IMG/VR virus record: IMGVR_UViG_3300036820_000002
Location: 1-64,000 of that record
Source of the DNA: a virus
Direction: 5' to 3' (one strand)
Length of the DNA: 64,000 nucleotides
Under the pieces are notes generated by a model. That model saw only the letters and a list, made by a program, of their open reading frames with translations. It had not been told where the DNA came from and ran no database searches. This document shows positions 6,363-38,295 of the stretch, one piece after another. The translations under genes and the position numbers were made by a program. The first letter of the stretch is position 1. Each line of letters starts with the position of its first letter.

Positions 6363-7538
6363 AGTTTCTTCTTTCTTTTTTAGGTGGTAGCACGTGCTGT
6401 GCTTGCTGTTCTCATCGTAAGGAACGGGAACGGCTCAGGTAAAGGGCTCTTATTCCCCCCTTTACCTACCGGTAAAGTAGGAAATGCGGAACTCCTTTGA
6501 CGAGCTGTCCCCTCAGCCCCAGGGTGTTCTTGGCAGGTGATCAGTGGCTGATGTAAAAAGCATCGCCGAAGAGGGCGGGGGGCAGCCTCTGCAAATTCTG
6601 GACGGGTGGTCGCATCCCCCCTTTAGATACCCCGCGTCACTGCTGGTGACTAGCTGTAGTTTCCAGCCAGTAAGGGGGTGAGGGGTGAACGCAGTGAATC
6701 CCCGAACGCCTCGCACTAACCAGGAGACCCGCTCAGAGTAGGGTCGCGGGCGGAGATTTATCCGGCAGGCGACTGATGCGTGGTCTGAGCTGCAGAAGGA
6801 TGCTTAGCCAGAAGGGCGGGTCTGGCTTGTCCTGCTGAGGACAATAGATCCCCCCAAACCGCTAGCGGGGGTTGGTAGCGGGCTCCTCCCTGGCCCCGGA
6901 GGTTTAACTCCGGGCCAAGGCGCCTGTGTCTACCCCTAGACACCCGGCCTTGGCGGGTTGTTCAAACGCGTTTTGAGCTTAGCATGGCCAACCAAATAGT
7001 TACAAGACCCCAGCTGGGGTTTTCTCAGATTTATTTATCCTTGCTAAGAAACGATCTGGTAACGATTGCTTTTTACCCTGACCTGGTTGACCTCTGGGGG
7101 CTGTTACCGGTAGGATTTCTCCTCATAGGGCGACCATCAGGCATAAACACCTGACCAGGCGACCCATCGCAAGACAGCTCGACCTGCCGGGAAAGCTCAG
7201 CGGACGCACGCGGGAGTGCGGGGCACGGCTCACCAGCAGCTAGTCCGGATTTAGTTCGCAGTAAAACAGGGCCACCGGCATGCCTGGACGCAGGTACTGC
7301 AGGGAGTCCACCTTTAGTGTCATCGTTCAGCCGCTCCCGGCCAGGAGCGAGGGTCTGATGACGCTTCTCAAAGCCCCCAGGCCTGGGGGTTACGCAGATA
7401 CAGCCAGGGGTCTGCCTTCTGCAGGGGCGGACCTTACTGGCGTTGCCTGCTACCTTCCTTCTCATGAAAGAGAACAGCCAGGATATAACCCCCCGCTGCG
7501 CCTTCCCGCCGTGGACCCCCGTTCCGGGTGCTGTCCCG

Positions 7539-7940
7539 GTGGAGTACTGGCATGCCTCACGTACCCCTCTAGCAGGGACGTACGTAGTACGGTCATGCCC
7601 GCATGACAACCTCATCGTCTATACCTACATCACTGATATTCATGACGCCTTCTCAGTATGGGCGTATGCTGCTGCCGGACCGCAGGATGTGCGGCTGATC
7701 TCGGTGATGCAGCACATCTTCCCCGGGGGCCCCTTCCGGAAGCTCACCGAAGTGCACCGCTACATCGAGGAGACCTGGCGTGACAGGGAGATCATCATCG
7801 CACTGGCGCAGGGGAGCATGCTCTTCTCCTGGACCCGCGAGGTCCTGGACCGCCGGGGCATCATCGTGACCGCCCGCGACGCCGTCCGGCTGCTGCTCCC
7901 CGCCGGGGAAGTCCGCAAGGAGGACCCGTGGAGGAGCTGA
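7539..7940 (+). CDS. hypothetical protein (start uncertain)
   Basis: GC3-biased ORF overlapping start of HD gene. Confidence 0.45.
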   Translation: MEYWHASRTPLAGTYVVRSCPHDNLIVYTYITDIHDAFSVWAYAAAGPQDVRLISVMQHIFPGGPFRKLTEVHRYIEETWRDREIIIALAQGSMLFSWTREVLDRRGIIVTARDAVRLLLPAGEVRKEDPWRS

Positions 7941-8533
7941 GCCGGCAGGTTTTCGCACTCGTCCAGCTCGCGCTGGATTTCGGCCTGATAGAACGCGGCG
8001 TCTGCCATCCCGGCGGGAAACCGGAGACCGATACCGACCACAGCATCTCGCTGGCCTGGCTGGCCTGCTCGCTGGCCGCCCGCTTCTACCCGCAGCTGGA
8101 TAACGGGCTGGTCGCGATGTTCGCCGTCGTGCATGACGCGGTGGAGGTTTATGCGGGAGATTCCTACGCGATTACCGCCGGGGAGGACGGGCGTGCCCGC
8201 ACGCGGGAACGGGAAGAGCAGGCACTGCGCTGGCTGCGCGATGACTTCACCGTGCTGCCCTGGCTGCCGGAGATGATCGCCCGCTACGAGCGGCAGGAGG
8301 AACCCGAAGCGCGGCTGGTCCGGACAGTGGACAAGCTGATGCCGAAGATCGTGCTGCGCATCGAGGGGCAGCCGGCTCAGCGGCTGGCCGCCCACGGGGT
8401 GACCCGGGAAGCGCTCATCGCGTTCCGGGCCTATGAGGATGAGCTGCTGGCCGTGATCGCGGCGGATTTCCCGGAGGTCCTGCAGCTGCGGGCTGACCTG
8501 CATACGCAGCTGTCCCCGGAGGATCTCCCGTGA
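7928..8533 (+). CDS. HD-domain phosphohydrolase (5'-deoxynucleotidase-like)
   Basis: ETDTDHSISLA, VVHDAVEVYAGD, EARLVRTVDKLMP. Confidence 0.88.
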   Translation: MEELSRQVFALVQLALDFGLIERGVCHPGGKPETDTDHSISLAWLACSLAARFYPQLDNGLVAMFAVVHDAVEVYAGDSYAITAGEDGRARTREREEQALRWLRDDFTVLPWLPEMIARYERQEEPEARLVRTVDKLMPKIVLRIEGQPAQRLAAHGVTREALIAFRAYEDELLAVIAADFPEVLQLRADLHTQLSPEDLP

Positions 8534-8904
8534 CCGGCCCCCTCCCCCCCGCTTCCCTTGCGGAGATGCTGGCGATGATCCGCGAGGTGGACGCTCACTG
8601 CGACGCCAGCAGGGCACCCGCGTTCAGTCAGCAGCCGCTGGCCGCTGACTGGGCACGTATCACCAAGGTCTGCGAGGAAGCCGGGGAGGTCTGGGAAGCG
8701 CTCAGCAAGGCCACCGGAGAAAACCCCCGCAAGGGAACAGGCAGCTGGGACACGGTGCTGGAGGAGCTGGGCGATGTATTCAGCGCGTCTGTCTGCGCTA
8801 TCCAGCATGTCACTAAGGATGAGAGGCGAACCCTGGGCGTGATGATGGCGGCACTGCGGAAAGCACATCTGCGAATATCGGAAGGACGGCATGACCAGGT
8901 ATGA
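8530..8904 (+). CDS. MazG-like protein
   Basis: KVCEEAGEVWEAL...GENPRKG...VLEELGDV. Confidence 0.85.
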   Translation: MTGPLPPASLAEMLAMIREVDAHCDASRAPAFSQQPLAADWARITKVCEEAGEVWEALSKATGENPRKGTGSWDTVLEELGDVFSASVCAIQHVTKDERRTLGVMMAALRKAHLRISEGRHDQV

Positions 8905-11827: not shown

Positions 11828-12105
11828 TGGCCAGGATGCTAGGTACGAACCGGGAGGCCGGATGTGGCCTCGGGAGATGTTACTACTGCCAGCGCGGGGA
11901 TGAGACCCGGCGGACCAAGCGCATTGAGGAGCGGCGGTGGCGCCGGGAGCTCGCTGATGAGATGACGCTGCTGCTGACGGAGGCGGCGCAGGTACGTGAT
12001 GGTTATGGTCCGCTGATGAGCGCGGTCTGCCTGCTGACCGGGTTCACCCCGGAGCGGGTCAATGAGCTCGGCGGGACAGGGGAACAGAATGGCGAAGAAA
12101 CCTAA
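11827..12105 (+). CDS. hypothetical protein
   Basis: ORF between SLOG gene and effector, overlapping both. Confidence 0.5.
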   Translation: MARMLGTNREAGCGLGRCYYCQRGDETRRTKRIEERRWRRELADEMTLLLTEAAQVRDGYGPLMSAVCLLTGFTPERVNELGGTGEQNGEET

Positions 12106-13621
12106 GCTTCCGTACCGGCGTGCCCAGACCTATGCCGCCGACCTGACCCCGGAACAGGAACAGGCTTTCGATGTGCTGGCGGCCGGGGTCCGCTGGGCCT
12201 GGAATCAGTGGTCCGCCTCCCAGGGTGCTCTCTGGAAAGCCCACGAGCTGCTGGAGACAACCTCTGAGCTGGGGAAGAAGATTACCGCCGCCCGTCAAGG
12301 TCATGAAATGTTCCGGTATTACACCACCAGCTGCTTGTTTACCGAGCATTCCTTTGCTGAGATTCCCCATACTTGTCTTTCTAGTGCCCTCCGCCAGTTC
12401 ACTGACGCATGGACACGTCATTTCAAGGCGCTGAAGACCGGGGCGCCCTCCTCGCCGCCTGGATTCCGCAGCTGGAAAGGCCCGCAGTCCCTGTACTGGG
12501 AGGTACAGCAGGACGATCATTCGTGTTCGCCGGGAGACGTGCTGCCCATCACGAGAGGTTCCGCCGTCCGCAGCACTCCGCATACGGCGATGCTACGGGT
12601 ACCTACCGCGCTTGGTTCTGCGATCTGCATCGGGAAGGTCAGTGTTCGCCTGCACCGGCTGCTGCCCGATGACGCCCGGGTGAATTTCGCCGTCCTGCGC
12701 CGGGATAAGATCGGGCGCTATGCGGTGACTGTCCAGTACCAGACAGCAACGGTGCGGCAGGGTGCCGCCACCGGCCTGACCGGGGTTGACCGAGGGAGTG
12801 TGGTCACAGCAGCCACTAGCTCGGGGGAGTTTTACAATGCTCCCGGCCTGACTCCCGGTCAGCTCAAACGTAAGCTCAGGCTGGAGCAGGGACTAGCTCA
12901 TAAGCGTCTAGCGAATAAGTGCATCCACGACGAGGAGATCACCGTCGGCGGTAAGATCTGGGTGAAGAGAGGCGACTGCCCTGAACCCGGTGACCCTGGC
13001 CACGACTGCCGGTGCTGGAAACATACCCGCAGCTATAAAGACCAGCAGCTTGCCTTGGCTAAGCTGTCCGTCCGTGAGCAGCGGATGCGCAAGGCAGTCT
13101 CGCACATGGCTTCCCGCGCGCTTGCTGACAGGTATGCCGTCGTGGTCATGGAAGACCTGAAGCTGTCTGCTATGACCAGGAGGGCGCACGGTCCCGGGTC
13201 GGCCGGCAAGACGGGGCGGAACCGGGAGATGCGGGCCGCGAGTTTGTACCAGCTGCAGAAACTCACTGAGTACAAGACGACGGTCGTGTATGTTCCGCCC
13301 CCCTATACCAGTCAGACCTGCCCCGCCTGCGGGCACGTGGACAAGAAAAACCGCGACGAACAGGTGTTCTGCTGCACGTCTTGTGGCCTGTCGGGTCATG
13401 CTGACGTCATCGCTGCCCGTAACATCGAGAACCTCTACGAGCGTCCCGGTGATGACTCAGATCCCGGGGGTCGCTCGCACGCAGGTCAGGATAGGGAAAT
13501 CGTACGTACGCTCGGGGAAAACCTTATCCCGGCGGCATGGGGGAGACCTGTCGCTCGCACGAGGCGACGTAAGGCCTGGTCAAAGCGGGTAAAAAAGCCG
13601 AGCCCTGGTGATAGTCTCTGA
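12089..13621 (+). CDS. compact type V CRISPR effector (TnpB/Cas12f/Cas12n-like RuvC nuclease, about 510 aa)
   Basis: RuvC-I GVDRG, RuvC-II VVMEDL, Zn ribbon YTSQTCPACG...CTSCG, RuvC-III HADVIAARNI; directly abuts CRISPR array; no tnpA. Confidence 0.9.
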   Translation: MAKKPKLPYRRAQTYAADLTPEQEQAFDVLAAGVRWAWNQWSASQGALWKAHELLETTSELGKKITAARQGHEMFRYYTTSCLFTEHSFAEIPHTCLSSALRQFTDAWTRHFKALKTGAPSSPPGFRSWKGPQSLYWEVQQDDHSCSPGDVLPITRGSAVRSTPHTAMLRVPTALGSAICIGKVSVRLHRLLPDDARVNFAVLRRDKIGRYAVTVQYQTATVRQGAATGLTGVDRGSVVTAATSSGEFYNAPGLTPGQLKRKLRLEQGLAHKRLANKCIHDEEITVGGKIWVKRGDCPEPGDPGHDCRCWKHTRSYKDQQLALAKLSVREQRMRKAVSHMASRALADRYAVVVMEDLKLSAMTRRAHGPGSAGKTGRNREMRAASLYQLQKLTEYKTTVVYVPPPYTSQTCPACGHVDKKNRDEQVFCCTSCGLSGHADVIAARNIENLYERPGDDSDPGGRSHAGQDREIVRTLGENLIPAAWGRPVARTRRRKAWSKRVKKPSPGDSL

Positions 13622-14506
13622 TCAGAGAATGAATTGCGACTAACCATTCCGCTCGCGACCCGCGTCAACAGGTCAGCTGGTGATAGTCTCTGATCAGAGA
13701 ATGAATTGCGACATCGATGACAAGCTCGGCCGCGAGAACTTCGGCCGGCTGGTGATAGTCTCTGATCAGAGAATGAATTGCGACTCATGGCAGCCATGCG
13801 ACATCTGCGGCGGCAACCTCCTGGTGATAGTCTCTGATCAGAGAATGAATTGCGACACCCCGATGCTCGTATTGGCCTCATGCCTAATGTGGCTGGTGAT
13901 AGTCTCTGAGCAGAGAATGAATTGCGACATCACGTACCTGATGACCTCGTTGTCCCCCCGGTGGTGGTGATAGTCTCTGAGCGGAGAATGAATTGCGACG
14001 CCGACTCCTGGTCCCCAGTGCTCACGCGTGCCCAGCCTGGTGATAGTCTCTGATCAGGGAATGAATTGCGACCCGAACGCCAAGGTCAGCAACCACAACA
14101 CTTACACCTAGTGATAGTCTCTGAGCAGAGAATGGATTGCGACACGAAAGCTCCCGTCTGCTCGCCGGTTTTGCCACACCTGGTGATAGTCTCTGACCAG
14201 AGAAATGAATTGCGACTTGAATCTGCGGTCCCGGCGCAACCAAGCCTGTTCCAGCTGGTGATAGTCTCTGATCAGGGAATGAATTGCGACACATCCAGAA
14301 GCCGTAGTGGAGAGCGGATCAGGCCGCTGGTGATAGTCTCTGAGCGGAGAATGAATTGCGACGGGGACATGCTGCTGTGCGAGAGCGCGGTGCCGCCTAG
14401 TGATAGTCTCTGACTAGAGAATGAATTGCGACGCCGTAACTCCCGTGATGATCGTTGGGGCAGTTGCGGGCTGGTGACAGTTTCTGACCAGAGAATGCAA
14501 TAATAA
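13605..14506 (+). CRISPR. CRISPR array, 13 repeats (last degenerate), 12 spacers of 34-38 bp
   Basis: 36-bp repeat CTGGTGATAGTCTCTGATCAGAGAATGAATTGCGAC starting at 13605, 13677, 13749, 13821, 13893, 13964, 14037, 14108, 14180, 14255, 14327, 14397, 14471. Confidence 0.98.
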
Positions 14507-14524
14507 TATGATTTAGGTAAATGA

Positions 14525-14655
14525 TAAGCAGTACCGCCGGGGCGCAACCGGTGTTAGCTACGGGTATGCCTGTCATGCAGGGGCCGCCCAGGAATCATTC
14601 TCTGTATTCTGCATGAAGAACCCCCCCGCCCTGGAAATGGGCGGGGGGGTTCTTT
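14525..14655 (+). ncRNA. candidate tracrRNA
   Basis: TCATTCTCTG (14595-14604) complementary to repeat CAGAGAATGA; loop CGCAA (14543-14547) complementary to repeat TTGCG; ends at terminator. Confidence 0.45.
14616..14654. terminator. intrinsic terminator between convergent units
   Basis: AAGAACCCCCCCGCCC/GGGCGGGGGGGTTCTT inverted repeat. Confidence 0.8.
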
Positions 14656-14662
14656 GCTTGCC

Positions 14663-15220
14663 TTACGGGGCCGGAATCAGCTCGGTGACGGGACGCCAGG
14701 TGCCGGTGACGATCCACAGCTGGGTTAGCGTGTGGCTGCGCAGCGGCTTCCACAGGGCGGGGCCGGGGATCTTCTTCGCGTCGGCGGACAGGGTCTCCCC
14801 GTTCAGCAGCCGGATCCGCCACTGGCTGGCGGTGGCGTTGTAGAAGGTTACCGCCGTCAGCGGCTCTTTCAGGATGACGGCGGTACTGTCCAGCTTGGTG
14901 GACAGGTACAGCAGCCGGTGCTTGCCGGTCTCCTCGTCTTCGGGGACCACGATCGTGCCGGGGGAGGCGTCCAGTCGGGTCAGCGCCCACAGCTGCCCGT
15001 AGGCTGCCGGGTTCTCCTGATGGCATTCCTGGACCGTGATTTCCTCTTCCTCCTTCCTGCTCCCGGCGGTCAGGCACCCGTGACTGCCTGCCAGCCGCAT
15101 CATGGTGATCAGCTGGTAGCCGTCGACCGGCGATCCCTTAGGTGCCGCCTGCGCAGGCATCGTGAAAGCGCAGAGCGCTGCCGCTGACAGCAGCGCTCCT
15201 GCCAGTACTGTCTTCTTCAT
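14663..15220 (-). CDS. secreted ricin-B lectin-like protein
   Basis: Signal peptide MKKTVLAGALLSAAAL...AQA; GCLTAG...VQEC...GQLW, TQLW. Confidence 0.65.
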   Translation of the reverse strand: MKKTVLAGALLSAAALCAFTMPAQAAPKGSPVDGYQLITMMRLAGSHGCLTAGSRKEEEEITVQECHQENPAAYGQLWALTRLDASPGTIVVPEDEETGKHRLLYLSTKLDSTAVILKEPLTAVTFYNATASQWRIRLLNGETLSADAKKIPGPALWKPLRSHTLTQLWIVTGTWRPVTELIPAP

Positions 15221-15447
15221 TCCGTTTCCTCTTCCTTTACTTCCTGCTCCGGCGGCAGCAGGGTGGCTGCCGCCGCGCCGATGATGATGCTCATGTCGCC
15301 GTCCAGCTGTCCGCAGTCGCCGAACACCTGGCACAGTGATTCGATGAGGTCTGTCTCAGTGTCAGATGCCGTTTCGCCGAGGAGGGCGGCAGCCTTCTCG
15401 AATTCCCAGGTCCGGATCGCTTCCTTGCATACCTCAGAGAGAGCCAT
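15217..15447 (-). CDS. hypothetical protein
   Basis: Coupled acidic ORF. Confidence 0.5.
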   Translation of the reverse strand: MALSEVCKEAIRTWEFEKAAALLGETASDTETDLIESLCQVFGDCGQLDGDMSIIIGAAAATLLPPEQEVKEEETE

Positions 15448-15632: not shown

Positions 15633-16043
15633 TCATGTTCCCGGGAAGCTGGAGTACGGGGACCGGGAGAAGGCGGTGGAGGCGGGATGCGCGGTAACGG
15701 TCTCTGTCACCAGGGGCTGTCCCCAGAGTGGGTACCGGGGAATGGCCTTGAGCTGCTCTTCCAGTTCCTTTACCCGTTCCTGCAGGGCGGTGATGACCGG
15801 GTCCTGCGGTGCGTCCGGACACAGGCCGCCGTGGCCCCCTGATCCCGTCTGGCCGCAGTACCGGCAGGCCCCGTCACCGAATCCGCTGGCATCAGTTTCA
15901 GTGACGGGATCGTTGTCGGGGCCCCCCTTGCCGATGCGGATGCCTAGCGCCTCCAGGATGGCTATCTGCGCAGGTGCAGGAAGTTTGTGCTCAGTCATGA
16001 TTCCGGCCGCTTCCCGGACGATGTCTCTGGCTGTTCTGCTCAT
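15633..16043 (-). CDS. hypothetical protein (likely leaderless)
   Basis: TACAAT 6 nt upstream of ATG; CRYCG...HGGLCP. Confidence 0.5.
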   Translation of the reverse strand: MSRTARDIVREAAGIMTEHKLPAPAQIAILEALGIRIGKGGPDNDPVTETDASGFGDGACRYCGQTGSGGHGGLCPDAPQDPVITALQERVKELEEQLKAIPRYPLWGQPLVTETVTAHPASTAFSRSPYSSFPGT

Positions 16044-16080
16044 CCCCTGATTGTAGTCCAGGGTATTTTCCTTGTTCCGG

Positions 16081-16109
16081 TTGACGGAGTCCGGGTTGCT
16101 CAGTATGTT
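16081..16109 (+). promoter_or_regulatory. SigA-type promoter for leaderless mRNA
   Basis: TTGACG-17bp-TATGTT, ATG 7 nt downstream. Confidence 0.65.
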
Positions 16110-16116
16110 TACCTTC

Positions 16117-16644
16117 ATGTTCAAGACCTTCAGCAAGTTCGCGATGATCGTCGGCCTCGCGATGGGCGCTACCCTGTCCGTCGGTGCGATGGCTGCCCAC
16201 GCATCTCCGGTGCCGCAGGCCCCGCCTTCCTCCAGTCACTGTATTACTATGGGCACTGATAAGCTCGGCACTCCTGTTATTCCTGGCGGCGGCAGCAAGA
16301 ACTGCTGTCCCGCTGACCACGTCACTGAGGGCATCACCGGCCAGGATGGAAACCGGAACAGTCAGGATCAGAACGGTAACTGCAGCTGCCCCGGCAGCGT
16401 GAACACCGGCCCCCTTGTCACCTCGGATTATCAGGGCGCCCAGGCAGGTAACTGCGACCCCTGTCCCACCCCGCAGCCCTGCAACTGCCAGCCTCCCGTC
16501 AAGAACCCTTGCCCCGTGAGTCGGCCTGGCGGCAATGACCCGGGCAGTCACCACACCCCTTGCCCGCCGAAGCAGCCCAAGCCCTGTAAGTCGCACACTA
16601 CCCCGAAGGACCCGTGCGGGAACAGCCACAGCACCTGGAAGTAA
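16117..16644 (+). CDS. secreted Cys/Pro-rich protein
   Basis: Signal peptide ending AAHA; many Cys. Confidence 0.65.
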   Translation: MFKTFSKFAMIVGLAMGATLSVGAMAAHASPVPQAPPSSSHCITMGTDKLGTPVIPGGGSKNCCPADHVTEGITGQDGNRNSQDQNGNCSCPGSVNTGPLVTSDYQGAQAGNCDPCPTPQPCNCQPPVKNPCPVSRPGGNDPGSHHTPCPPKQPKPCKSHTTPKDPCGNSHSTWK

Positions 16645-23324: not shown

Positions 23325-25034
23325 TCACCGCGCACCAGCCAGGTCGGTGCCAGCAGCGGCGCCAGTACTGCCAGCGCCGTCCCGAAAGGAGGGGTCCAGC
23401 TCCTTGCTGCGCTGCTCCAGCCAGTCCCGCACCCGGATGGTACTGCCGTCGTCCAGCGGCGCGGCAGCATCGAGCTGGGCGCCGCTGAGGGCCATCTGCC
23501 AGACGGCGCGCAGCTCGTCGATGGTGGAGGCGCCGCCGATCAGCGCGGTGATCTTCGGCAGCAGTTCCCCGCCTTCCTGTTTCACGGTCCTGGTCCGGGC
23601 CGGGCTGGCTACCGGGTGGGCGGGACGTGCTCCCCGGACCGCTTCCCCCGCCGATGCCACCGGGTTCTCGGCGGTGGGGTCGGCGCGGTCCCCCTTGGCC
23701 CACAGGTCCAGGGCTACCCCGAACCGCATCGCCGCATTGCGCAGGCTGTTCCGGACGACTATCCCGTTGGCGGTGTACTCGTGGCTGCCTTCGACGCTAA
23801 GGTTCCAGACTTCTCCTGGTCCGGCGTCCAGCACTGCCACGACAGCTACCGCAGCAGAAACGTGCCCACGGTCGCTTGGCGACGAATTCGGTTCCGCATT
23901 CTTCGCAGCTGCGATTGTCCCTGAAGGATCCCTTACGGGGGCGGATATAGGCCGTTCCCTCTCGACGACGCCGACGTTCCCTGCAGGCGGGAGAACACCA
24001 GCGGCTCCATGGGCGAACTGCTGTGTACGACTCGTTGCATTCGTCACAGAGCCGCTCATAGGTGACCTGGTGGTCGTGGTGCCATCGTGCGTGATCCCCC
24101 GGGGAGAGGGCGACAAGGTTTCCGGGATCGTTGTCAAGCGGGTCAACGTTGCGGTGATGGACGTGCCAGCCTTCTGGAATCGGTCCGTGTGCCGCTTCGT
24201 AGATGCCGACGTGAAGATAGGTACGTGGTGCAGTGGTCGCCATGAAGTAGACACGACGATGCCGGTCGGGATGACCGGGCTGCCGCCGGTACTGGCGCTG
24301 GTTCCAGGCGATGTCATCTGCGCCTGCGTTTTTACGGTACCCTGCCACGTGTAGAGCATATCGCCGTTACGCAACGCGTCCATGCACTGCAGGCCGCGAT
24401 TCGCGGTCGGAATACGGTGATGCGGTGTTCCGACGATCACGCGTCCGTCGGCCAGCAGTGCGGCCTTCGTGGGTGCGGCCGGGTGAGAAAGCCAGTGGTC
24501 AGTCACCCGGCGCCAGCCTTCACGGGTGGGTACCAGGTCCCCGACGCGAACATCCTCGATGCGGACGGCGCCGCGTGCGGTCTGTACGGGCGTACCACGG
24601 AGCAGGCAGTCGCCGATCAGGACTTTCACCGCGTCGTTCTGGCCGCTGGGCACAGATCCGTAGCCGAGCCGCGACACCCCCCCGATGGTGAGCCTGATCC
24701 ACAGCCCGACCGGCGACCCGCTGCTGTCCAGGTCGAAGACGGGCATGCCCCGCTCGTCGGCGGCCAGCGGTGCCCAGTTCCAGGCCGGGTCGGCGTCCAG
24801 CAGCCGGTTCGTCACATCCGCGTGGCCGACATAGTCAATGTGAATGTGGCGGACGGAGATGTAGTTGCCGCAGTCATCGCACTTGCTCTTCGGGTGCTTG
24901 TCGCAGGTCTTGCGCCGGTCGCTGCAGTCCGGGCAGGTGACCCTTGGCAGCTTCCCGATCAGTTCCCCCCCGAAGGGCTTGCGCAGGAGGGTCAGGTCCG
25001 TCACCGGGACATCGTGAGCCAGCGGGATCGTCAT
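23325..25034 (-). CDS. Rad52/Sak-like single-strand annealing protein with intein
   Basis: DYVGHADVTNRLLDADPAWNW, LWIRLTIGGVSRLGYG, KVLIGD|SLRNAAMRFGVALDLW. Confidence 0.85.
   Translation of the reverse strand: MTIPLAHDVPVTDLTLLRKPFGGELIGKLPRVTCPDCSDRRKTCDKHPKSKCDDCGNYISVRHIHIDYVGHADVTNRLLDADPAWNWAPLAADERGMPVFDLDSSGSPVGLWIRLTIGGVSRLGYGSVPSGQNDAVKVLIGDCLLRGTPVQTARGAVRIEDVRVGDLVPTREGWRRVTDHWLSHPAAPTKAALLADGRVIVGTPHHRIPTANRGLQCMDALRNGDMLYTWQGTVKTQAQMTSPGTSASTGGSPVIPTGIVVSTSWRPLHHVPIFTSASTKRHTDRFQKAGTSITATLTRLTTIPETLSPSPRGITHDGTTTTRSPMSGSVTNATSRTQQFAHGAAGVLPPAGNVGVVERERPISAPVRDPSGTIAAAKNAEPNSSPSDRGHVSAAVAVVAVLDAGPGEVWNLSVEGSHEYTANGIVVRNSLRNAAMRFGVALDLWAKGDRADPTAENPVASAGEAVRGARPAHPVASPARTRTVKQEGGELLPKITALIGGASTIDELRAVWQMALSGAQLDAAAPLDDGSTIRVRDWLEQRSKELDPSFRDGAGSTGAAAGTDLAGAR
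23748..24608 (-). mobile_element. intein (287 aa) in recombinase
   Basis: CLLRGTPV...IEDVRVGDLV...GTPHHRI...VWNLSVEGSHEYTANGIVVRN|S. Confidence 0.9.
23797..24348 (-). CDS. HNH homing endonuclease nested out of frame inside intein
   Basis: YLHVGIYEAAHGPIPEGWHVHHRNVDPLDNDPGNLVAL...HARWH plus two CxxC...CSxxC zinc fingers. Confidence 0.9.
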   Translation of the reverse strand: MAGYRKNAGADDIAWNQRQYRRQPGHPDRHRRVYFMATTAPRTYLHVGIYEAAHGPIPEGWHVHHRNVDPLDNDPGNLVALSPGDHARWHHDHQVTYERLCDECNESYTAVRPWSRWCSPACRERRRRREGTAYIRPRKGSFRDNRSCEECGTEFVAKRPWARFCCGSCRGSAGRRTRRSLEP

Positions 25035-28635: not shown

Positions 28636-30057
28636 ATGAGGCTGGACCGCAGCATCCTGACCCCGGCCGCGCGCCGGGCGCTGAAGGCGTGTGCTGATGC
28701 AGGTGGCCGTCCGGTGCTGGCCGGAGGGTGCGTCCGCGACGCCCTCCTTCACGTTGATATCAAAGACTTCGACGTCGAAGTCTACGGTGACGTGGATCCG
28801 GACCGTCTCTGCGCGGAGCTGTCCGCCATCGGGGCCGCCGATCTCACCGGCAAGGCGTTCGGGGTAATGAAGGTGCGCCTCCTGGGTGAGGAGATCGACG
28901 TCTCCCTGCCCCGCCGCGATATCAAGACCGCAGCGGGGCACCGGGGATTCGACGTCGTCACGGGCGGCGACCTTTCCCCGGAAGACGCGTCGGCGCGGCG
29001 TGACTTCACCGTCAACGCGATGATGGCCGACCCGCTTACCGGGGAGGTTACCGACCGCCACGGCGGCCTGGCTGACCTCTACGCGGGGGTGCTGCGCCAT
29101 ACTGGTCCCGCGTTCACCGAGGACCCGCTGCGGGTGCTGCGCGGGATGCGGTTCGCGGCCCGTTACGGGTTCACTATGGCGCCGGAGACCGTCCAGCTGT
29201 GCCGCAGCATCAGCGGCGCGTTCGCCGAGCTTCCCGCCGGGCGTGTCTGGGGGGAGTTCCGGCAGCTGGGCACCCGGGGCACGGACATCACCGCCGGGCT
29301 GGCGGTGCTGGCGGACACCGGCTGGGAGCGCCACTTCCCGCAGCTGGCTGCTCTTCACGGCATTCGCCAGGACCGTCGCTGGCATCCCGAAGGGGACGCT
29401 CACGTCCATTCCGGGCTGGCGGCGGACCAGGCGGCCCGGCTCGCTGATGAGGCGGGGCTGCCCGGCGATGACCGGTTCGTCGTCGTGATGGCGGCGCTGC
29501 TGCATGACCTGGGGAAGGCGGCCCGGACCCGGCATGCCGGGCTCGCCAGCCGCCTGCTGCGCCGCCGCATCACCTCTCACGGTCATGCAGCCGCTGGGGT
29601 AGAGCCTGCGGTCGCGTTCCTGCGCGCCGCAGGCTGCCCGGACGGGCTGATCATGCGGATCACCCCGCTGGTCAAGGAGCACATGTCCTGCCAGGTCCGG
29701 CCGTCCCCGCCGGCGGTCCGGCGGCTGGCCCGCCGGCTGCAGCCCGCCACCCTGGAGGAGCTGGCCCTGATCTGCTCCGCTGACCGGAAAGGACGCGGCG
29801 ACCCGGATGCGGCCAGCGGAGCAGATGCCTGGCTGGAGATGGGGCGCGGCCTCAGCGTGCAGGAGGAGCCAGTACGCGGTATCCTCACCGGGTATCACCT
29901 GATCGCCGCCGGGATGATTCCCGGCCCCGCCTTCCGGCCGGTGCTGGCCGCTGCCGTCACGGCGCAGGATGCTGGGGAATTCGCCGACGAAGAGGGGGCG
30001 CTGCAGTGGCTTACCGGGAACTACCTCCCGGCTGCAGTTCATTCTCGCAGAGCCTGA
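28636..30057 (+). CDS. cca: tRNA nucleotidyltransferase (CCA-adding/poly(A) polymerase family) with HD domain
   Basis: GGCVRDALL...KDFDVEV, RRDFTVNAM, EDPLRVLRGMRFAAR, HPEGD...LLHDLGK. Confidence 0.93.
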   Translation: MRLDRSILTPAARRALKACADAGGRPVLAGGCVRDALLHVDIKDFDVEVYGDVDPDRLCAELSAIGAADLTGKAFGVMKVRLLGEEIDVSLPRRDIKTAAGHRGFDVVTGGDLSPEDASARRDFTVNAMMADPLTGEVTDRHGGLADLYAGVLRHTGPAFTEDPLRVLRGMRFAARYGFTMAPETVQLCRSISGAFAELPAGRVWGEFRQLGTRGTDITAGLAVLADTGWERHFPQLAALHGIRQDRRWHPEGDAHVHSGLAADQAARLADEAGLPGDDRFVVVMAALLHDLGKAARTRHAGLASRLLRRRITSHGHAAAGVEPAVAFLRAAGCPDGLIMRITPLVKEHMSCQVRPSPPAVRRLARRLQPATLEELALICSADRKGRGDPDAASGADAWLEMGRGLSVQEEPVRGILTGYHLIAAGMIPGPAFRPVLAAAVTAQDAGEFADEEGALQWLTGNYLPAAVHSRRA

Positions 30058-31025: not shown

Positions 31026-31045
31026 AGCAGAGAATGAATTGCGAC
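31026..31045 (+). repeat. solitary partial CRISPR repeat (3' 20 nt)
   Basis: AGCAGAGAATGAATTGCGAC identical to the 3' end of array repeat 5. Confidence 0.85.
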
Positions 31046-32736: not shown

Positions 32737-32809
32737 TCGGACGTAGCTCAACGGGGAGAGCTCTGGTCTCCAAAACCAGCGGTTGAGGGTTCGAGTCCCT
32801 CCGTCCGGG
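32737..32809 (+). tRNA. tRNA-Trp(CCA)
   Basis: Cloverleaf; CTGGT-CT-CCA-AA-ACCAG. Confidence 0.9.
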
Positions 32810-32914
32810 CGAGGCACCACCTGCGGGTGTACGTGCGTGATCATTGACAACTCCATCTGTTGACGGGCCGGATGACCAGGGGTGAACGATGCCGCTGTAC
32901 CGTCCGGTCTCGTG

Positions 32915-32987
32915 GGGGCCTTGGCGCAGCTGGCAGCGCGTCTCTTTTGCACGGAGAAGGTCGCGGGTTCGATCCCCGCAGGCTCCA
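32915..32987 (+). tRNA. tRNA-Ala(TGC)
   Basis: Cloverleaf, G3:U70. Confidence 0.9.
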
Positions 32988-32992
32988 CGTCA

Positions 32993-33066
32993 GGGGGTTT
33001 GGCGCAGTCCGGAAGCGCGCTTCCTTCGCAAGGAAGAGGGCACGGGTCCGAATCCCGTAACCTCCA
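32993..33066 (+). tRNA. tRNA-Ala(CGC)
   Basis: Cloverleaf, G3:U70, T-loop TCC. Confidence 0.88.
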
Positions 33067-33073
33067 CCTGTAC

Positions 33074-33147
33074 GGGGCTTTAGCGCAGCCTGGTAGCGCG
33101 TCTGCGTGGCACGCAGAAGGTCGCGGGTCCGAATCCCGCAAGCTCCA
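33074..33147 (+). tRNA. tRNA-Ala(GGC)
   Basis: Cloverleaf, G3:U70, T-loop TCC. Confidence 0.88.
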
Positions 33148-33292
33148 CGAAAGAAGGGCCTGGCGCTGTCGGGCGTCAGGACTAAACGACATCCGGCGGG
33201 GCCCCAGTGATTACAACGGGCCGGGCGGCAGTCAGGGTACTACTCATGAGGTCCGCGCTCCCGCTTACTGGTGGTACTGCTAGGAATAGCAT

Positions 33293-33366
33293 CGGGTTGT
33301 GGCGCAGCTTGGCAGCGCGCGTCGTTCGGGACGACGAGGTCGGCCGTTCAAATCGGCCCAGCCCGA
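33293..33366 (+). tRNA. tRNA-Pro(CGG)
   Basis: Cloverleaf. Confidence 0.9.
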
Positions 33367-33449
33367 CTCTGAGGAGCTGCATACGGGGATGAGATAAGCC
33401 CTGGCTGTGTGTGGCGGTGAAAGTCCGTGCCAGTTCCTCAGTTTTTAAA

Positions 33450-33523
33450 CGGAGTATGGCGCAGCTTGGCAGCGCGCCCGGCTGGGGGCCGGGAGGTCGC
33501 GGTTTCGAATACCGCTACTCCGA
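33450..33523 (+). tRNA. tRNA-Pro(GGG)
   Basis: Cloverleaf. Confidence 0.88.
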
Positions 33524-33577
33524 CGAGCAGCCCGGACGCAGGCGCCGCCGGACGGCCTGGGCGGGCTGCCAGGTGTA

Positions 33578-33649
33578 CGGGGTGTAGCTCAGTGGCAGAG
33601 CACCGCGTTTGGGACGCGGGGGTCGTCCGTTCGGTCCGGACCACTCCGA
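33578..33649 (+). tRNA. tRNA-Pro(TGG)
   Basis: Cloverleaf. Confidence 0.88.
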
Positions 33650-33661
33650 CGTAAGTACTAT

Positions 33662-33733
33662 GGTCACCTAGCTGAGACGGATTAGCGGCTGCCTGAAAAG
33701 CAGCAGAGGCAGGGTCGCTACCTGCGGTGGCCA
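33662..33733 (+). tRNA. tRNA-Phe(GAA)
   Basis: Cloverleaf with atypical T-loop GTCGCTA. Confidence 0.8.
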
Positions 33734-34024
33734 CGGGGCTATAGGGAATCTCTTTGATGGTATCCTTGGCCTTTACCGGAAGACAGGACTAGAACCGTGG
33801 CCTCTGGCGGGGCCTTCGAAGAGAATTCCGGACACGATGAGGTCTTCCTTCCCTTACCGCGCTGAACACCTGTCTTCCCTCATAGTCGTGAGCCCCGGGT
33901 CCGCCTCTGCCTGCATGCCGCCCGGGGCACGGCCTGCCCCTGCCCTGACCTGGTCTCCGCGTACGGATAGCTTTATGGCATCCGTATGCAGTGGAGTATC
34001 CGTTTGAATCGGAAAGGGGCTCCT

Positions 34025-34095
34025 GCGGGTGTCGTCCAAAGGCAGGACAGCAGCCCTCCAAGCTGCTTACGCCGGTTCGACCCCGGTCACCCGCT
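34025..34095 (+). tRNA. tRNA-Gly(TCC)
   Basis: Cloverleaf; C at position 33. Confidence 0.82.
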
Positions 34096-34107
34096 CTTAT
34101 CAGCCAT

Positions 34108-34181
34108 GGGCCGCTAACTCAAGTGCGAAGAGTACCGTCCTCTTAAGTCGGAAGTTCCGGGTTCGAGTCCCGGGCGGCTCA
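34108..34181 (+). tRNA. tRNA-Lys(CTT)
   Basis: Cloverleaf. Confidence 0.88.
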
Positions 34182-34223
34182 CTGCTAGTGTTAAGGAGGG
34201 CGGCTCACTGCTAGTGTTAAGGA
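34172..34223 (+). repeat. 26-bp tandem duplication including tRNA-Lys 3' end
   Basis: GGGCGGCTCACTGCTAGTGTTAAGGA x2. Confidence 0.9.
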
Positions 34224-34274
34224 GAATGTCATGCACGCTCTCTATAAACAGGTCCCGGCCATCTGATAAACCGG

Positions 34275-34348
34275 GAGCCGCTAACTCAAATGCGAAGAGT
34301 ACCGATCTTTTAAATCGGGAGTTCAGGGTTCGAGTCCCTGGCGGCCCA
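34275..34348 (+). tRNA. tRNA-Lys(TTT)
   Basis: Cloverleaf. Confidence 0.88.
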
Positions 34349-34470
34349 CAGGAGAGAATATGCCGCAGGTCATCTGCCCGGACTGCAAGGGCGGTGAAGA
34401 CGATAAGAAGGACTGCGAGCGGTGCCATGGCACCGGTACTATCTGGGTGGACAGCGGCTCCGGCTGGTAA

Positions 34471-34546
34471 GGGCGGGTAAGTCCAATCTGGTAGAGCTGG
34501 CCTGCTCAAAACAGGTCGTATGCGGGTTCGAGCCCCGCCCCGCCTA
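34471..34546 (+). tRNA. tRNA with CAA anticodon (Leu) lacking long variable arm
   Basis: GCCTG-CT-CAA-AA-CAGGT; short variable loop. Confidence 0.7.
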
Positions 34547-34727
34547 CGGAAGAGATGAATGGGATGCAGCGGCGGCAGACCCGGGGCCTGGCTGAGGGTG
34601 ATGTCTTCACCGGCTGGAAGCATGTGCTCTGCTACGTGCAGCGAGCGGGAGTGAAGAGCGGTATCAAGCGCGGTGCCCGGCGGCGGGAGCGGCGTGAGGG
34701 CAAGGCGCAGCTGCGGGAAGAACAGAT

Positions 34728-35033
34728 ATGAAGAGAAGGCCGGTGGCGGCATTCGACGTGGACGGCACCCTCCTCCGGGACGACGACAGCCCCCGCGAGG
34801 AGATGGTCTCGTTGCTGATGGCACTGGTGCCGTACTGCAGGATCGTGGTCTGGTCCGGTTGCGGGAGCGATTATGCGGTGATGCAGGGACGGCGGCTCAG
34901 GCTCCCGGACGGCATCACCTACATGGCGAAGGCCGGCGGGTTCGCCGACCTCTGCTTTGATGACCAGGATGTTAACCTGGCGACCGTGAACATCATGGTC
35001 GCCGATGAGGAGCAATCCTCCGATCCCGCTTAG
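34728..35033 (+). CDS. small HAD-family phosphatase
   Basis: AFDVDGTL, IVVWSG, LCFDD. Confidence 0.75.
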   Translation: MKRRPVAAFDVDGTLLRDDDSPREEMVSLLMALVPYCRIVVWSGCGSDYAVMQGRRLRLPDGITYMAKAGGFADLCFDDQDVNLATVNIMVADEEQSSDPA

Positions 35034-35096
35034 TTCAGCTGGTAGAACGCCGCCCTCTGAAGGCGGAAGTGCGAGGTTCGAAACCTTGAGCGGGAG
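35024..35096 (+). tRNA. tRNA-Gln(CTG)
   Basis: Cloverleaf. Confidence 0.88.
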
Positions 35097-35100
35097 CTGT

Positions 35101-35138
35101 GCCCCTGTAGCTCAGCCGGAAGAGCGGTCACCTCGTAC
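35101..35138 (+). pseudogene. tRNA 5' half ending at anticodon loop
   Basis: GCCCCTGTAGCTCAGCCGGAAGAGCGGTCACCTCGTAC; no 3' half follows. Confidence 0.6.
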
Positions 35139-35147
35139 AGAAATCTT

Positions 35148-35221
35148 GCCGTCATAGCTCAGCTGGTCAGAGCGGCTGTCTCGTAAACAGCAGGTGGCAG
35201 GTTCGAGCCCTGCTGGCGGCT
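35148..35221 (+). tRNA. tRNA-Thr(CGT)
   Basis: Cloverleaf. Confidence 0.9.
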
Positions 35222-35260
35222 CTCCGTGGTCAGGGGCTCTGGCCGAAGAGAAGGAGAAGG

Positions 35261-35464
35261 ATGAGCGAACAGGACAGGACGGCGGCCGTTCACGCCTCCG
35301 TCGATGAGAAGGCGGCTGAGCTCGCGCTGATGGAGCACATCCGGGCGGCAGTGTACAGCCTGGAGGTTCCTATTTCCCAGGTCGTGCTCCGCTTCGAGGA
35401 GAAGCTCCGCGAGCTGCTCCCGGTGGCGCCGGGGGAGACCTTGAAGACGCCGGACAGCGAGTAG
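35261..35464 (+). CDS. hypothetical protein
   Basis: Strong RBS, GC3 bias. Confidence 0.6.
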   Translation: MSEQDRTAAVHASVDEKAAELALMEHIRAAVYSLEVPISQVVLRFEEKLRELLPVAPGETLKTPDSE

Positions 35465-35465
35465 C

Positions 35466-35978
35466 ATGGGCCGTATCGCGGTAGCAATGGTCGCGGTGGC
35501 GGTGGCCGCCGGAGCCTGCTTCGCACCGGCTGCGGAAGCCAAGCCAGCTCCGTCGAGCCATGAGGTGGCTTATGATGATATCCGGGCAGCGGGAACCAGG
35601 GAATGTTTCGCGGTCTCGGGGCTGCGGGTGATAATCGCTACCTGCAATGTCCATGACGGTCATCAGGAATGGCTTCTCAACCGCTATGGAGCACTGCTGG
35701 AGATAGCCAGCTCGGAGTACCCCGGGCTGTGCCTCGGCAAGCCCGGCTACCCGGTGACGCTCAGTTCATGTGCGGACCTGAATGCTCACGGTTACCCGCT
35801 CCGCCTTGATGAGACCGCCAGGGAGACGATGACTGTGGAACTGGCGCGTACGGGTGACCTGTTGTCTTCCTGCCTCTCCGGCGACGAGGAGGCGATCGCC
35901 CGCTGGACGGTCAGGAACACTGCCGACTGCCTCCAGGAGCTTGTGCTTCCGGAATGGAAGCCGGTGAAGGACGCGTAA
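35466..35978 (+). CDS. secreted ricin-B lectin-like protein
   Basis: Signal peptide; ECFAV...ATC...HQEW, GLCLG...LSSC. Confidence 0.65.
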   Translation: MGRIAVAMVAVAVAAGACFAPAAEAKPAPSSHEVAYDDIRAAGTRECFAVSGLRVIIATCNVHDGHQEWLLNRYGALLEIASSEYPGLCLGKPGYPVTLSSCADLNAHGYPLRLDETARETMTVELARTGDLLSSCLSGDEEAIARWTVRNTADCLQELVLPEWKPVKDA

Positions 35979-35992
35979 GGAGGGAGAAGGAG

Positions 35993-36217
35993 ATGGCCGT
36001 AGAGATTGCGCTGAAGCACAAGTACCGGATGGGCAGCACCGGCAAGAGGAATGCGTCCCGGGGCAATAACAGCGGTACGAACAAGCACCGGGGCGAGGAT
36101 AAGAACCGGCTTGCGTTCGCCCAGTCTCAGACCAGGGCAAACCAGCGGATGCTGGTTATGCTGCCGACCGGCAGGTTCCGGTGGGTGCTGGCGGCGGACT
36201 GGGGTGGCAGCCGCTAG
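35993..36217 (+). CDS. small basic hypothetical protein
   Basis: GGAG RBS. Confidence 0.45.
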   Translation: MAVEIALKHKYRMGSTGKRNASRGNNSGTNKHRGEDKNRLAFAQSQTRANQRMLVMLPTGRFRWVLAADWGGSR

Positions 36218-36251
36218 CGGGCGGCCTGGCGGGATATCAGGAAGATAACAT

Positions 36252-36336
36252 GCGCTCGTGGCGGAATGGCAGACGCGCAGCGTTGAGGTCGCTGTGCTCC
36301 GCGAGGGGCGTCCCGGTTCAAGTCCGGGCGGGCGCA
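36252..36336 (+). tRNA. tRNA-Leu(GAG)
   Basis: Cloverleaf with long variable arm. Confidence 0.9.
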
Positions 36337-36407
36337 CACCGTGTCTGGCTGGTCACGGTGAGATGATATGAGCAGGGCCCGTGGCGAGTGCCAGCTCGCT
36401 ACGGCAC

Positions 36408-36481
36408 GCCGCCTTAGCTCAGTCTGGCAGAGCAACCGCCCTGTAAGCGGTAGGTCACCCGTTCGAGGCGGGTAGGCGGCT
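36408..36481 (+). tRNA. tRNA-Thr(TGT)
   Basis: Cloverleaf; C33. Confidence 0.82.
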
Positions 36482-36794
36482 CACGAGGTAATCCCAGGGG
36501 AAGGGGACGAATGGATTTCAGTGACGCGCTGAGCACTATGCGGCAGGGCGGCAGGGTACGGCGGCGGTTGTGGTCACAGATATGGCCCGCGCACCTATGG
36601 CTGGAGATCGTGGCGAACTGGGACCTCCTGGCCAGTGACTGGGAGGCAGAGTAATCAGCCGGCGGGATTGGACGACCCCGAAGGCGCATGCCCGCAGGCC
36701 GCACCATAAAGCCATGCACAGCGGCAAGAAAGGGAGAGGTGGGGATAAGAAGCTGAAGGAAGTCAAGCGCCTGCTCGCGCAGGGAGCAGTGTAA

Positions 36795-36868
36795 TGCCCG
36801 CTGGGGTAACCGGCAAGCCCACCGGGTTTTGGTCTCGGGTGTTCCAGGTTCGAATCCTGGGCGGGCAG
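36795..36868 (+). tRNA. tRNA-Gln(TTG)
   Basis: Cloverleaf. Confidence 0.88.
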
Positions 36869-36965
36869 CGAGGAGATAGGGTTCTGCGCACGGAGATGAT
36901 TCTCCTCTGTCTAAACATGGCATAGTGCCTGGGTTACGGTACCCGGTGTCTAAAAGCCGCTGTAA

Positions 36966-37038
36966 GCCTCTCTAGCTCATCCGGCAGAGCGTGGCCATGG
37001 TAAGGTCAAGGCGAGCGGTTCGAGTCCGCTGGGAGGCT
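36966..37038 (+). tRNA. tRNA-Thr(GGT)
   Basis: Cloverleaf. Confidence 0.88.
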
Positions 37039-37154
37039 CACCGGGATACGTCTGGCACCGTGGCGTGTCCCTGCCGGTCCCACGAAGATGCTGACCTTCA
37101 CGGAGGGCCGGTAACCAGCCAGCCCTGGTCAGCGGGCGCTGGCACGGTGCACAC

Positions 37155-37226
37155 GCGGTTGTGGCGCAGTGGTAGCGCACCACCTTGCCAAGGTGGGGGT
37201 CACGGGTCCGAATCCCGTCAGCCGCT
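37155..37226 (+). tRNA. tRNA-Gly(GCC)
   Basis: Cloverleaf, T-loop TCC. Confidence 0.88.
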
Positions 37227-37287
37227 CGGAGGGACAACGCTGGGGGCTGACTTACCCAAGGAGATCGTCACTGGTGTCCCTTCTCAT

Positions 37288-37359
37288 GCGGCCATAATTC
37301 AATGGCAGAATGCCACCTTCCCATGGTGGAGACGAGGGTTCGACTTCCCTCTGGCCGCT
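37288..37359 (+). tRNA. tRNA-Gly(CCC)
   Basis: Cloverleaf. Confidence 0.85.
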
Positions 37360-37392
37360 CTGTTCCTTACGCCGAGACGCGTGAGGAACCCC

Positions 37393-37477
37393 GGGCGAGT
37401 GGTGGAATGGTAGACACGCATGCCTCAGGAGTATGTGTCTTAACGACGTGGGGGTTCGACTCCCCCCTCGCCTACCA
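37393..37477 (+). tRNA. tRNA-Leu(CAG)
   Basis: Cloverleaf with long arm, encoded CCA. Confidence 0.9.
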
Positions 37478-37646: not shown

Positions 37647-37677
37647 CCCTGTTTCAGTGAACTGAAGGAAGAGATAC

Positions 37678-38259: not shown

Positions 38260-38295
38260 CTGGTGATAGTCTCTGACCAGAGAATGAATTGCGAC
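38260..38295 (+). repeat. solitary full-length CRISPR repeat
   Basis: CTGGTGATAGTCTCTGACCAGAGAATGAATTGCGAC, 35/36 to consensus. Confidence 0.95.

Follow-up and report, generated by a model that had tools for sequence, protein, structure and literature searches.

The first 64,000 nucleotides (nt) of the IMG/VR virus record IMGVR_UViG_3300036820_000002, referred to below as the window, contain a gene for a TnpB-like nuclease of 510 amino acids (aa) that runs directly into a CRISPR array, with a candidate trans-activating CRISPR RNA (tracrRNA) encoded immediately behind it. Judging from the sequence, this locus is probably a working phage-borne miniature type V-like CRISPR system that arose from a TnpB-family nuclease and in which the guide-RNA scaffold has been split off as a tracrRNA. 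The whole record is 130,268 bp long, has direct terminal repeats and is 100% complete according to CheckV; together with the presence of 42 tRNA genes and of phage replication and recombination genes, this confirms the initial annotation in its view of the system as phage-encoded.

Effector gene and CRISPR array

The coding part and the array of the locus comprise the following features:

12089..13621, plus strand: effector open reading frame (ORF), 510 aa; an alternative ATG at 12062 would give 519 aa
13605-14506, plus strand: CRISPR array of 13 repeats and 12 spacers
14471..14506, plus strand: terminal repeat 13, degenerate, followed by an AT-rich stretch

The stop codon of the effector ORF (TGA, 13619-13621) lies inside repeat 1, which overlaps the last five codons and the stop. 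The repeats are 36 nt long (one has 37 nt) and separate 12 unique spacers of 34–38 nt, any two of which have at most 18 ungapped matches; the repeat pattern was matched 13 times in the genome, while its reversed control gave no match. The general architecture is that of type V systems, namely a single effector with a C-terminal split RuvC domain (D-E-D) and a zinc-ribbon/TNB insert, whose gene adjoins an array of unique spacers. Cas1, Cas2, Y1_Tnp and Resolvase were each searched for in all 130,268 bp of the record and not detected (0/1 each); in control genomes these searches were positive. The effector gene is present in the record in a single copy. The minimal composition originally proposed from the window, a TnpB-derived effector plus an array with neither cas1, cas2 nor tnpA, is thus found to hold for the complete phage.

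Repeats 1–4 are identical, the later ones carry one to three changes each, and repeat 13 is degenerate. This polarity, pointed out in the initial annotation, recurs in three related loci (L010, L016 and L029), where the ORF-proximal repeats are also identical and the distal ones degenerate. The repeat alone folds as a hairpin (TCTCT-N4-AGAGA, −6.1 kcal/mol), and its stem is changed in five repeats (A>G in repeats 6 and 11, A>G in repeats 7 and 10, and C>T in repeat 13). All five changed stems form G-U pairs in the plus-strand RNA; on the opposite strand the bases facing each other would be C and A. Since the variants stay paired only in the plus-strand RNA, the array is assigned to the plus strand, in agreement with the orientation first suggested.

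The effector scored 142.4 bits with the NCBIfam model NF040570 (guided_TnpB, cut-off 100) and 64 bits with the Pfam model Cas12f1-like_TNB (cut-off 26.3). It remained below the cut-offs of IS200_TnpB (65 versus 425 bits), IS607_TnpB (64.9 versus 350 bits), the C2c8/V-U2 model NF038192 (51.3 versus 350 bits) and the Cas12f2 model NF049972 (47 versus 450 bits), and none of the subtype-specific models reached its cut-off with this protein. The catalytic RuvC residues D234, E355 and D439 and the ribbon cysteines C411, C414, C429 and C432 are invariant in all 19 aligned members of the family described below, which upholds the initial description of a protein with a D-E-D triad and a zinc ribbon. 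In RdCas12n, the residues that align with E355 and D439 are E386 and D484, and the GVDLGV motif aligns with D234 (residue names from the accessible portion of PMC12216341).

A second Cys/His cluster (C278, C297, C307, C309 and H312) is likewise invariant in 19 of 19 aligned members. It occupies residues 278–312 (window positions 12920-13024) between the RuvC-I and RuvC-II segments, is not part of the generic TnpB hidden Markov model (HMM) alignment, and may be an extra zinc site. An AlphaFold2 model of the effector had a mean predicted local distance difference test (pLDDT) score of 78.5, the basic C-terminal tail being of low confidence. With this model, Foldseek ranked ISDra2 TnpB (8h1j) top, followed by Cas12f, at low template modelling (TM) scores. 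The G+C content at third codon positions (GC3) of the effector gene is 0.70, compared with 0.8–0.9 in most long phage genes, in keeping with either a different origin or constraints at the RNA level.

The effector family and the arrays of its members

The effector is a member of a family without a name that comprises about 20 proteins and is represented here only by viral and metagenome contigs. A word-indexed protein search returned 44 proteins at E ≤ 1e-5, about 20 of which align over most of their length at 37–50% identity; these are of metagenomic origin, and their annotation goes no further than 'transposase'. A HMMER scan of 1.84 billion representatives produced 7469 matches at E ≤ 0.001, only 13 of them at E ≤ 1e-30. 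The 19 aligned members are 42–52% identical to the window protein. Among 185,579 prokaryote species, with one genome per species, no full-length relative was found; 29 partial loci matched, and since these cover at most approximately residues 229–470, only the generic RuvC/ribbon part is common to them and the effector. A protein search of GenBank phages matched 276 records, all with less than 60% identity and annotated as transposase. Megablast against GenBank phages revealed no close relative of the locus, and no match was obtained in IMG/VR with the exact repeat or with the window protein alone.

The DNA of relatives comprised two IMG/VR loci (L010 and L011) and 16 metagenome loci (L015–L030). 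L010 is located in a complete 210-kb phage and L011 in a 101-kb record; L024 represents the same place as L011. At least three IMG/VR virus records contain a member of the family, and completeness is shown for two of them (G000 and G001). Several of the relatives' contigs have other genes in common with this phage, at 36–60% identity and in different neighbourhoods. L015 carries on the same contig a second, different TnpB-like gene (6990-8762, plus strand; 590 aa; phrog_506, 'transposase').

At the ORF end, all 12 aligned loci pass into a repeat-like segment whose 3' end (TGCGAC, beside the guide) is invariant. The number of repeats at the ORF end varies as follows:

L020 and L028: 1 repeat
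L015 and L023: 2 repeats
L017: at least 2 repeats (contig end)
L016: 4 repeats
L021: 5 repeats
L029: 7 repeats
Window: 13 repeats
L010: 22 repeats

No clear repeat was found at the ORF end of L011. The family tree was built with a quick method and has long outgroup branches and a midpoint root used for drawing only. Because the one-repeat locus L020 groups in it with loci of four and at least two repeats, array size appears to change quickly.

A two-stem RNA scaffold in the ORF tails of relatives

Ten relatives contain a 68-nt two-stem RNA element within the ORF tail, directly after the RuvC-III motif. Across these 10 sequences and 19 pairs, 99.5% of the cells are paired, and 8 of the 19 pairs show changes on both sides. 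In slid controls, 34–50% were paired, and the covariation score was reached by none of 500 shuffles, although kinship of the sequences inflates such shuffle tests. Behind the two-stem element the relatives have a short segment able to pair with the last part of the repeat. In the part of the ORF tail that separates the stems from repeat 1, RNAalifold predicted a single short hairpin, without covariation, and we take this part to be conserved as protein.

A covariance model of the two-stem element (R1) found one match per relative ORF tail, with scores of 85–92 bits. Extra copies were detected upstream and in divergent orientation in L015, L018, L019 and L025 (69–73 bits), as well as 2.5 kb downstream in L011 (54.7 bits). 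They are compact stand-alone units consisting of the stems, a short pairing segment and ..TGCGAC, followed by flanking DNA in the place of the guide:

L015, 2600-2723, minus strand: stand-alone guide-RNA unit
L018, 1083-1199, minus strand: stand-alone guide-RNA unit, the same place recurring in L019 and L025
L011, 12032-12158, plus strand: stand-alone guide-RNA unit

The units of L015 and L018 lie upstream of the effector gene and are directed away from it, so that the gene is flanked by two outward-facing guide units. No partial protein copy was found alongside the stand-alone units, and their guides match nothing but themselves.

A candidate tracrRNA behind the array

The two-stem columns are missing from the window ORF and, by protein alignment, likewise from P0003, its closest relative, and the window ORF tail has no stretch of at least 7 nt that is complementary to the repeat. 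Since the window protein and P0003 form a clade (starred in the quick tree) nested within the family, the absence of ORF-embedded stems appears to be a derived state. The initial annotation had implied that no tracrRNA was needed; however, a tracrRNA-like element was found just after the array, with the following predicted parts:

14484..14512, plus strand: sigma-70-like promoter match (CTGACC, 17 nt, TATGAT), with a predicted start about 10–20 nt before the element
14533..14616, plus strand: candidate tracrRNA body (stem 1, divergent middle, anti-repeat)
14534-14555, plus strand: stem 1, a homologue of stem 1 in the scaffold embedded in the relatives' ORFs
14595-14604, plus strand: anti-repeat TCATTCTCTG, complementing repeat positions 19-28
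14617..14655, plus strand: intrinsic terminator, a 16-bp G+C stem with a T-rich tail

When all 130 kb were searched by nhmmer with a DNA profile of the relatives' stems, the best match was located at 14533-14571 on the plus strand, 27 nt past the array (E 0.13). By manual count, 27 of 31 aligned bases of this segment match L015, and cmsearch gave 19.3 bits at the same site, the top score of the window. The anti-repeat is complementary to the repeat at 10 of 10 positions and is placed like the segment that follows stem 2 in the relatives. Its calculated pairing with its own repeat amounts to −14.5 kcal/mol, versus −3.6 to −9.6 kcal/mol with 12 other repeats, and the other anti-repeats pair with the window repeat at only −1.3 to −5.9 kcal/mol. 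The pairing matrix also revealed group-specific matching for L010/L017/L020/L029 and for L021/L023/L028. The repeat variants at positions 2, 4 and 10 of the pairing segment CAGAGAATGA are all A>G opposite U.

The promoter scan found two promoter-like sites in 4.2 kb, both in the AT-rich stretch, versus 0.9 ± 0.8 in shuffles. A 132-nt fold of the element had a z-score of −3.45, with no equally stable structure among 200 shuffles. The terminator is predicted to end the array and tracrRNA transcripts; it also faces a convergent minus-strand gene (14663-15334).

Solitary repeats

Four copies of the repeat, complete or partial, are located away from the array:

31028..31045, plus strand: solitary half repeat (18/18), in an intergenic gap
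38260..38295, plus strand: solitary repeat (35/36), flanked by a 191-aa ORF and a small Zn-finger ORF
111282-111317, minus strand, outside the window: solitary repeat (34/36)
128778-128813, minus strand, outside the window: diverged solitary repeat

A control search with the reversed query gave no matches. On their local strand the copies lie at or between ORF ends, the coding calls near the minus-strand copies being uncertain. The half repeat at 31028 consists of exactly the 3' 18 nt, that is, the segment pairing with the anti-repeat plus TTGCGAC, and the 5' arm of the hairpin has been dropped. The copy at 38260 lies within the tRNA cluster and has an internal ATG in frame with the downstream ORF. 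The copy at 128778-128813 has a double compensatory hairpin change (TCCCT/AGGGA). At both minus-strand copies, the upstream minus-strand ORF ends at a TGA in the repeat, like the effector ORF. No solitary repeat is present in the complete 210-kb relative, where 20 of 20 matches fall within its array.

Spacer targets

The 12 spacers have no match in their own genome with 10 or fewer mismatches and none in GenBank phages at E values up to 1. A plasmid match (39 nt, 87.5%, E 0.8) was taken as chance, and 22-nt seeds of spacers 1–3 (3 of 12) were not found in IMG/VR. The search of viral databases that the initial annotation had suggested for defining the protospacer-adjacent motif (PAM) therefore yielded neither a target nor a PAM. 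Comparison of 60 spacers or guides of the relatives with all fetched loci gave two partial matches: spacer 6 of L029 matches L015 at 30 of 37 positions, inside the second TnpB-like gene mentioned above, and spacer 1 of L017 matches the window at 62839 (27/36). The 5' flanks of these two matches have no common motif, so no PAM was inferred.

Proposed mode of action and alternative explanations

In the proposed mechanism, the array would be transcribed as a 3' extension of the effector mRNA. An ancestral omegaRNA-like scaffold would have been split: stem 1, a diverged middle and an anti-repeat fitting the repeat of this phage, together forming the 5' part, would have left the ORF and would now constitute an independent tracrRNA about 135 nt long (roughly 14520-14660), equipped with a promoter and a terminator of its own. 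This RNA would pair with repeat positions 19-28 of each unit, the effector would bind the tracrRNA–repeat duplex, and the 3' spacer would guide the cutting of PAM-flanked DNA, most likely that of competing phages or other mobile DNA. The use in inter-phage conflict and the borrowing of host Cas1–2 put forward in the initial annotation are hypotheses.

Several observations weigh against this scheme. The covariance-model score of 19.3 bits is at noise level, since two other window sites reach 17.6–17.7 bits and a higher score (20.2 bits) was obtained elsewhere in the genome, at 96831-96866 on the minus strand. Only stem 1 and its flanking bases are recognisably conserved, and stem 2 of the family is not. 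In the pairing matrix the cognate repeat ranks first for only 4 of 13 units and no higher than seventh for L015 and its stand-alone unit as well as for L016 and L018. The relocated scaffold is known from one genome, and the best whole-repeat complement in this genome lies at another site, 15690-15727 on the plus strand (−38 kcal/mol; next best, −34.1 kcal/mol). Finally, searches of the phage's own genome, GenBank phages, plasmids and IMG/VR (in the last case with seeds of 3 of 12 spacers) revealed neither a spacer target nor a PAM. Despite its noise-level score, the element behind the array is favoured because of its context, namely the anti-repeat, the pairing with its own repeat, and the flanking promoter-like site and terminator. 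On the sequence evidence alone the case is weak; with the context included, we regard the element as rather probably a tracrRNA.

The complement at 15690-15727 was set aside as a tracrRNA: it is antisense inside a minus-strand ORF (15633-16136), with neither a promoter or terminator match nor homology to the scaffold. Its duplex with the repeat contains many G-U pairs. On the minus strand the segment starts with CTGGTGACAG, as repeat 13 does, and either a decayed inverted solitary repeat or chance may account for it. The site at 96831-96866 is preceded on the same strand, 244 nt upstream, by a weak repeat-like stretch (97110-97155, minus strand; GGTGATAG ... CAGTGAATGAGCTGTGAC, 14/18 in the 3' half), both being outside the window, and the two may represent a decayed second unit or a coincidence.

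A simpler arrangement would be one in which the effector reads the repeat hairpin of the CRISPR RNA (crRNA) and uses no tracrRNA, the element behind the array being a decayed ancestral leftover that shares a terminator. The ability of the repeat to fold by itself, the G-U pairs in its stem variants and the double compensation in the copy at 128778-128813 would all suit a hairpin-reading enzyme, and the score within the noise and the unconserved stem 2 would suit a leftover. However, a relic would not be expected to keep a 10/10 complement to its own repeat, distinct from the repeats of all relatives, or to sit between a promoter-like site and a terminator. Moreover, the half repeat at 31028 retains exactly the part needed for pairing with the anti-repeat and not the 5' arm of the hairpin, and the A>G change at position 10 of CAGAGAATGA, present in repeat 8 and in the copy at 111282, falls outside the hairpin and inside the tracrRNA duplex, where it gives a G-U pair. 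We therefore consider a system operating with crRNA only to be unlikely. The solitary repeats also allow for one nuclease with two guide systems, the array acting against foreign DNA and the solitary repeats acting as omegaRNA ends, which we regard as a rather doubtful proposition.

The locus could also be a selfish TnpB-like homing module instead of an immune system, with an array produced by duplication of omegaRNA 3' ends or by recombination without Cas1–Cas2, and with guides that aid spread or retention of the element and the DNA flanking it in mixed infections. Adaptation genes are absent, the relatives include single-guide units and stand-alone units with flanking DNA as guide, the 'guides' of the four solitary repeats would be the phage's own adjacent genes, and a single-strand annealing protein is encoded at 23325-25034. 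The accessible portion of PMC10691335 already proposes that arrays arise by duplication of omegaRNA segments. Such a module seems improbable, since the phage has neither a transposase nor a second effector copy, and its 12 spacers, being unique and without match in its own genome, are not copies of local flanks. Besides, no empty-site allele of the solitary-repeat loci was found, because the collections hold no close relative of the phage. Least of all do we expect a decaying or inactive remnant with no present function, which is very improbable. The degenerate distal repeats and the effector GC3 below that of most long phage genes would be in line with decay, but the ORF is intact, the catalytic and zinc ligands are kept across 19 members at 42–52% identity, the four proximal repeats are identical, and the family persists not only in the IMG/VR virus records (G000 and G001 among them) but also in many metagenome contigs.

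Comparison with known systems

The best match of the family profile among solved structures was RdCas12n (Cas12n/V-N, formerly V-U4; PDB 9J09), with 93.5 bits and an E value of 1.3e-25; the window protein alone scored 29.5 bits. Their lid motifs (SAMTASAKGT..PG.NV..K.GLNR) closely resemble each other, and the catalytic E and D residues are aligned. According to the accessible portion of PMC12216341, RdCas12n is also a small TnpB-like effector accompanied by an array only, and Cas12n is characterised by a tracrRNA overlapping the ORF, a disordered C-terminal tail and AAN PAMs. However, the match spans profile positions 299–465 only, and the N-terminal WED/REC half of the family reached 1.7 and 3.5 bits; the RuvC half alone aligns, and full-length kinship with characterised Cas12n was not found. 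The ORF-overlapping tracrRNA of Cas12n has a counterpart in 10 relatives but not in the window, where the best segment match lies after the array. Unlike Cas12n, the family is known here from phages and metagenomes and was not found in cellular genomes. P0031, a Corynebacterium 'transposase' with 67.6 bits to 9j09, was tried as a stand-in for Cas12n and proved unusable as a labelled reference.

The effector resembles TnpB of TnpB–omegaRNA elements (IS200/IS605 and IS607) in exceeding the cut-off of the superfamily HMM and in having ISDra2 TnpB as its top Foldseek match; in the relatives, as in these elements, the guide-RNA scaffold shares sequence with the ORF's 3' end, and the DNA that comes next serves as the guide. 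In contrast, the window encodes neither tnpA nor a serine recombinase, its effector is single-copy and does not pass the element-specific HMMs, and there are 12 distinct spacers in place of one flank-derived guide.

TranC systems are reportedly transposon–CRISPR intermediates in which the omegaRNA splits into a tracrRNA and a crRNA ('RNA splitting') as the array appears. The window family is similar to TranC (LaTranC, PDB 9JFO/9JFQ) in displaying fused, ORF-embedded and separated states of the scaffold, but the sequence relation to LaTranC is weak (9jfq, 33 bits with the family profile; 9jfo, E 3.9e-4 with the protein). Cas12p 'hacker' and Cas12j/CasPhi systems are also phage-borne and combine an effector with an array without adaptation genes. 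Cas12p proteins of 500–700 aa use a tracrRNA and have been called an early intermediate (bioRxiv 10.1101/2025.01.20.633832, accessible portion); Cas12p 9jfs reached only 18–21 bits with the window protein or the profile. CasPhi proteins are about 750 aa long and match in the C-terminal part of RuvC only, and the Cas12f PDB matches cover only residues 331–447.

The accessible portion of PMC10691335 describes about 50 cases in which Cas12 arose independently from TnpB, along with 40 candidate V-U branches without names (V-U6 to V-U45). The initial suggestion of a 'possibly independent TnpB-to-Cas12 lineage' agrees with the finding that no subtype model was passed, but its novelty is reduced, considering that the RuvC half is nearest to Cas12n/V-N and that so many origins and branches are already in print. 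The window family itself may be among the 40 published branches. In the accessible portions of the literature on phage-encoded TnpB-like systems with arrays, no description of this family was found.

General features of the phage genome

The phage genome has a GC content of 65.5% and a terminal repeat of 127 bp. The following genes were located in the window:

23325-25034: single-strand annealing protein gene
28636-30057: tRNA nucleotidyltransferase gene
32737-44435, plus strand: 42 tRNA genes, covering all 20 amino acids

Rfam at gathering thresholds detected nothing besides tRNAs (39 matches). In addition to the annealing protein, the phage encodes a ribonucleotide reductase, a sliding clamp and a primase/helicase-like protein. 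A conserved 723-aa phage protein has its best identity, 41.6%, to an uncultured phage, and no close cultured relative was found. Among public runs, the locus is present in one DNA run (a soil metagenome, which may be its source), and none is listed for RNA.

Implications

It is already established as a general idea that TnpB became Cas12 many times and that phages carry compact Cas12 systems. The locus and its roughly 20 relatives contribute one shallow family, at 42–52% identity to the window protein, in which the proposed steps can be compared directly: a single guide taken from the flanking DNA, fused guide RNAs that stand alone, arrays that grow from the ORF end and range from 2 to 22 repeats, a scaffold located within the ORF in relatives, and a scaffold apparently moved out as a separate tracrRNA in this phage. 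The hypotheses of 'RNA splitting' and 'array by duplication' therefore become testable with natural variants. The locus looks like a stage in the transition from a transposon nuclease to a CRISPR system, and the 510-aa effector with its intact RuvC domain is a candidate compact genome editor.

The solitary repeats raise the testable idea of RNA-guided competition between phages. If the nuclease does serve two guide systems, the solitary repeats, together with a tracrRNA supplied in trans, would make guides against the phage's own next genes. The carrier would be protected, with the repeat occupying the PAM position, and a co-infecting sibling without the repeat would be cut. The cut sibling would then be repaired from the carrier, perhaps via the phage annealing protein, and the repeat and its neighbour genes would be copied in the process. 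This would constitute RNA-guided homing or marker exclusion between phages, and the system would be an extant intermediate that employs one effector both in the manner of TnpB and in that of CRISPR.

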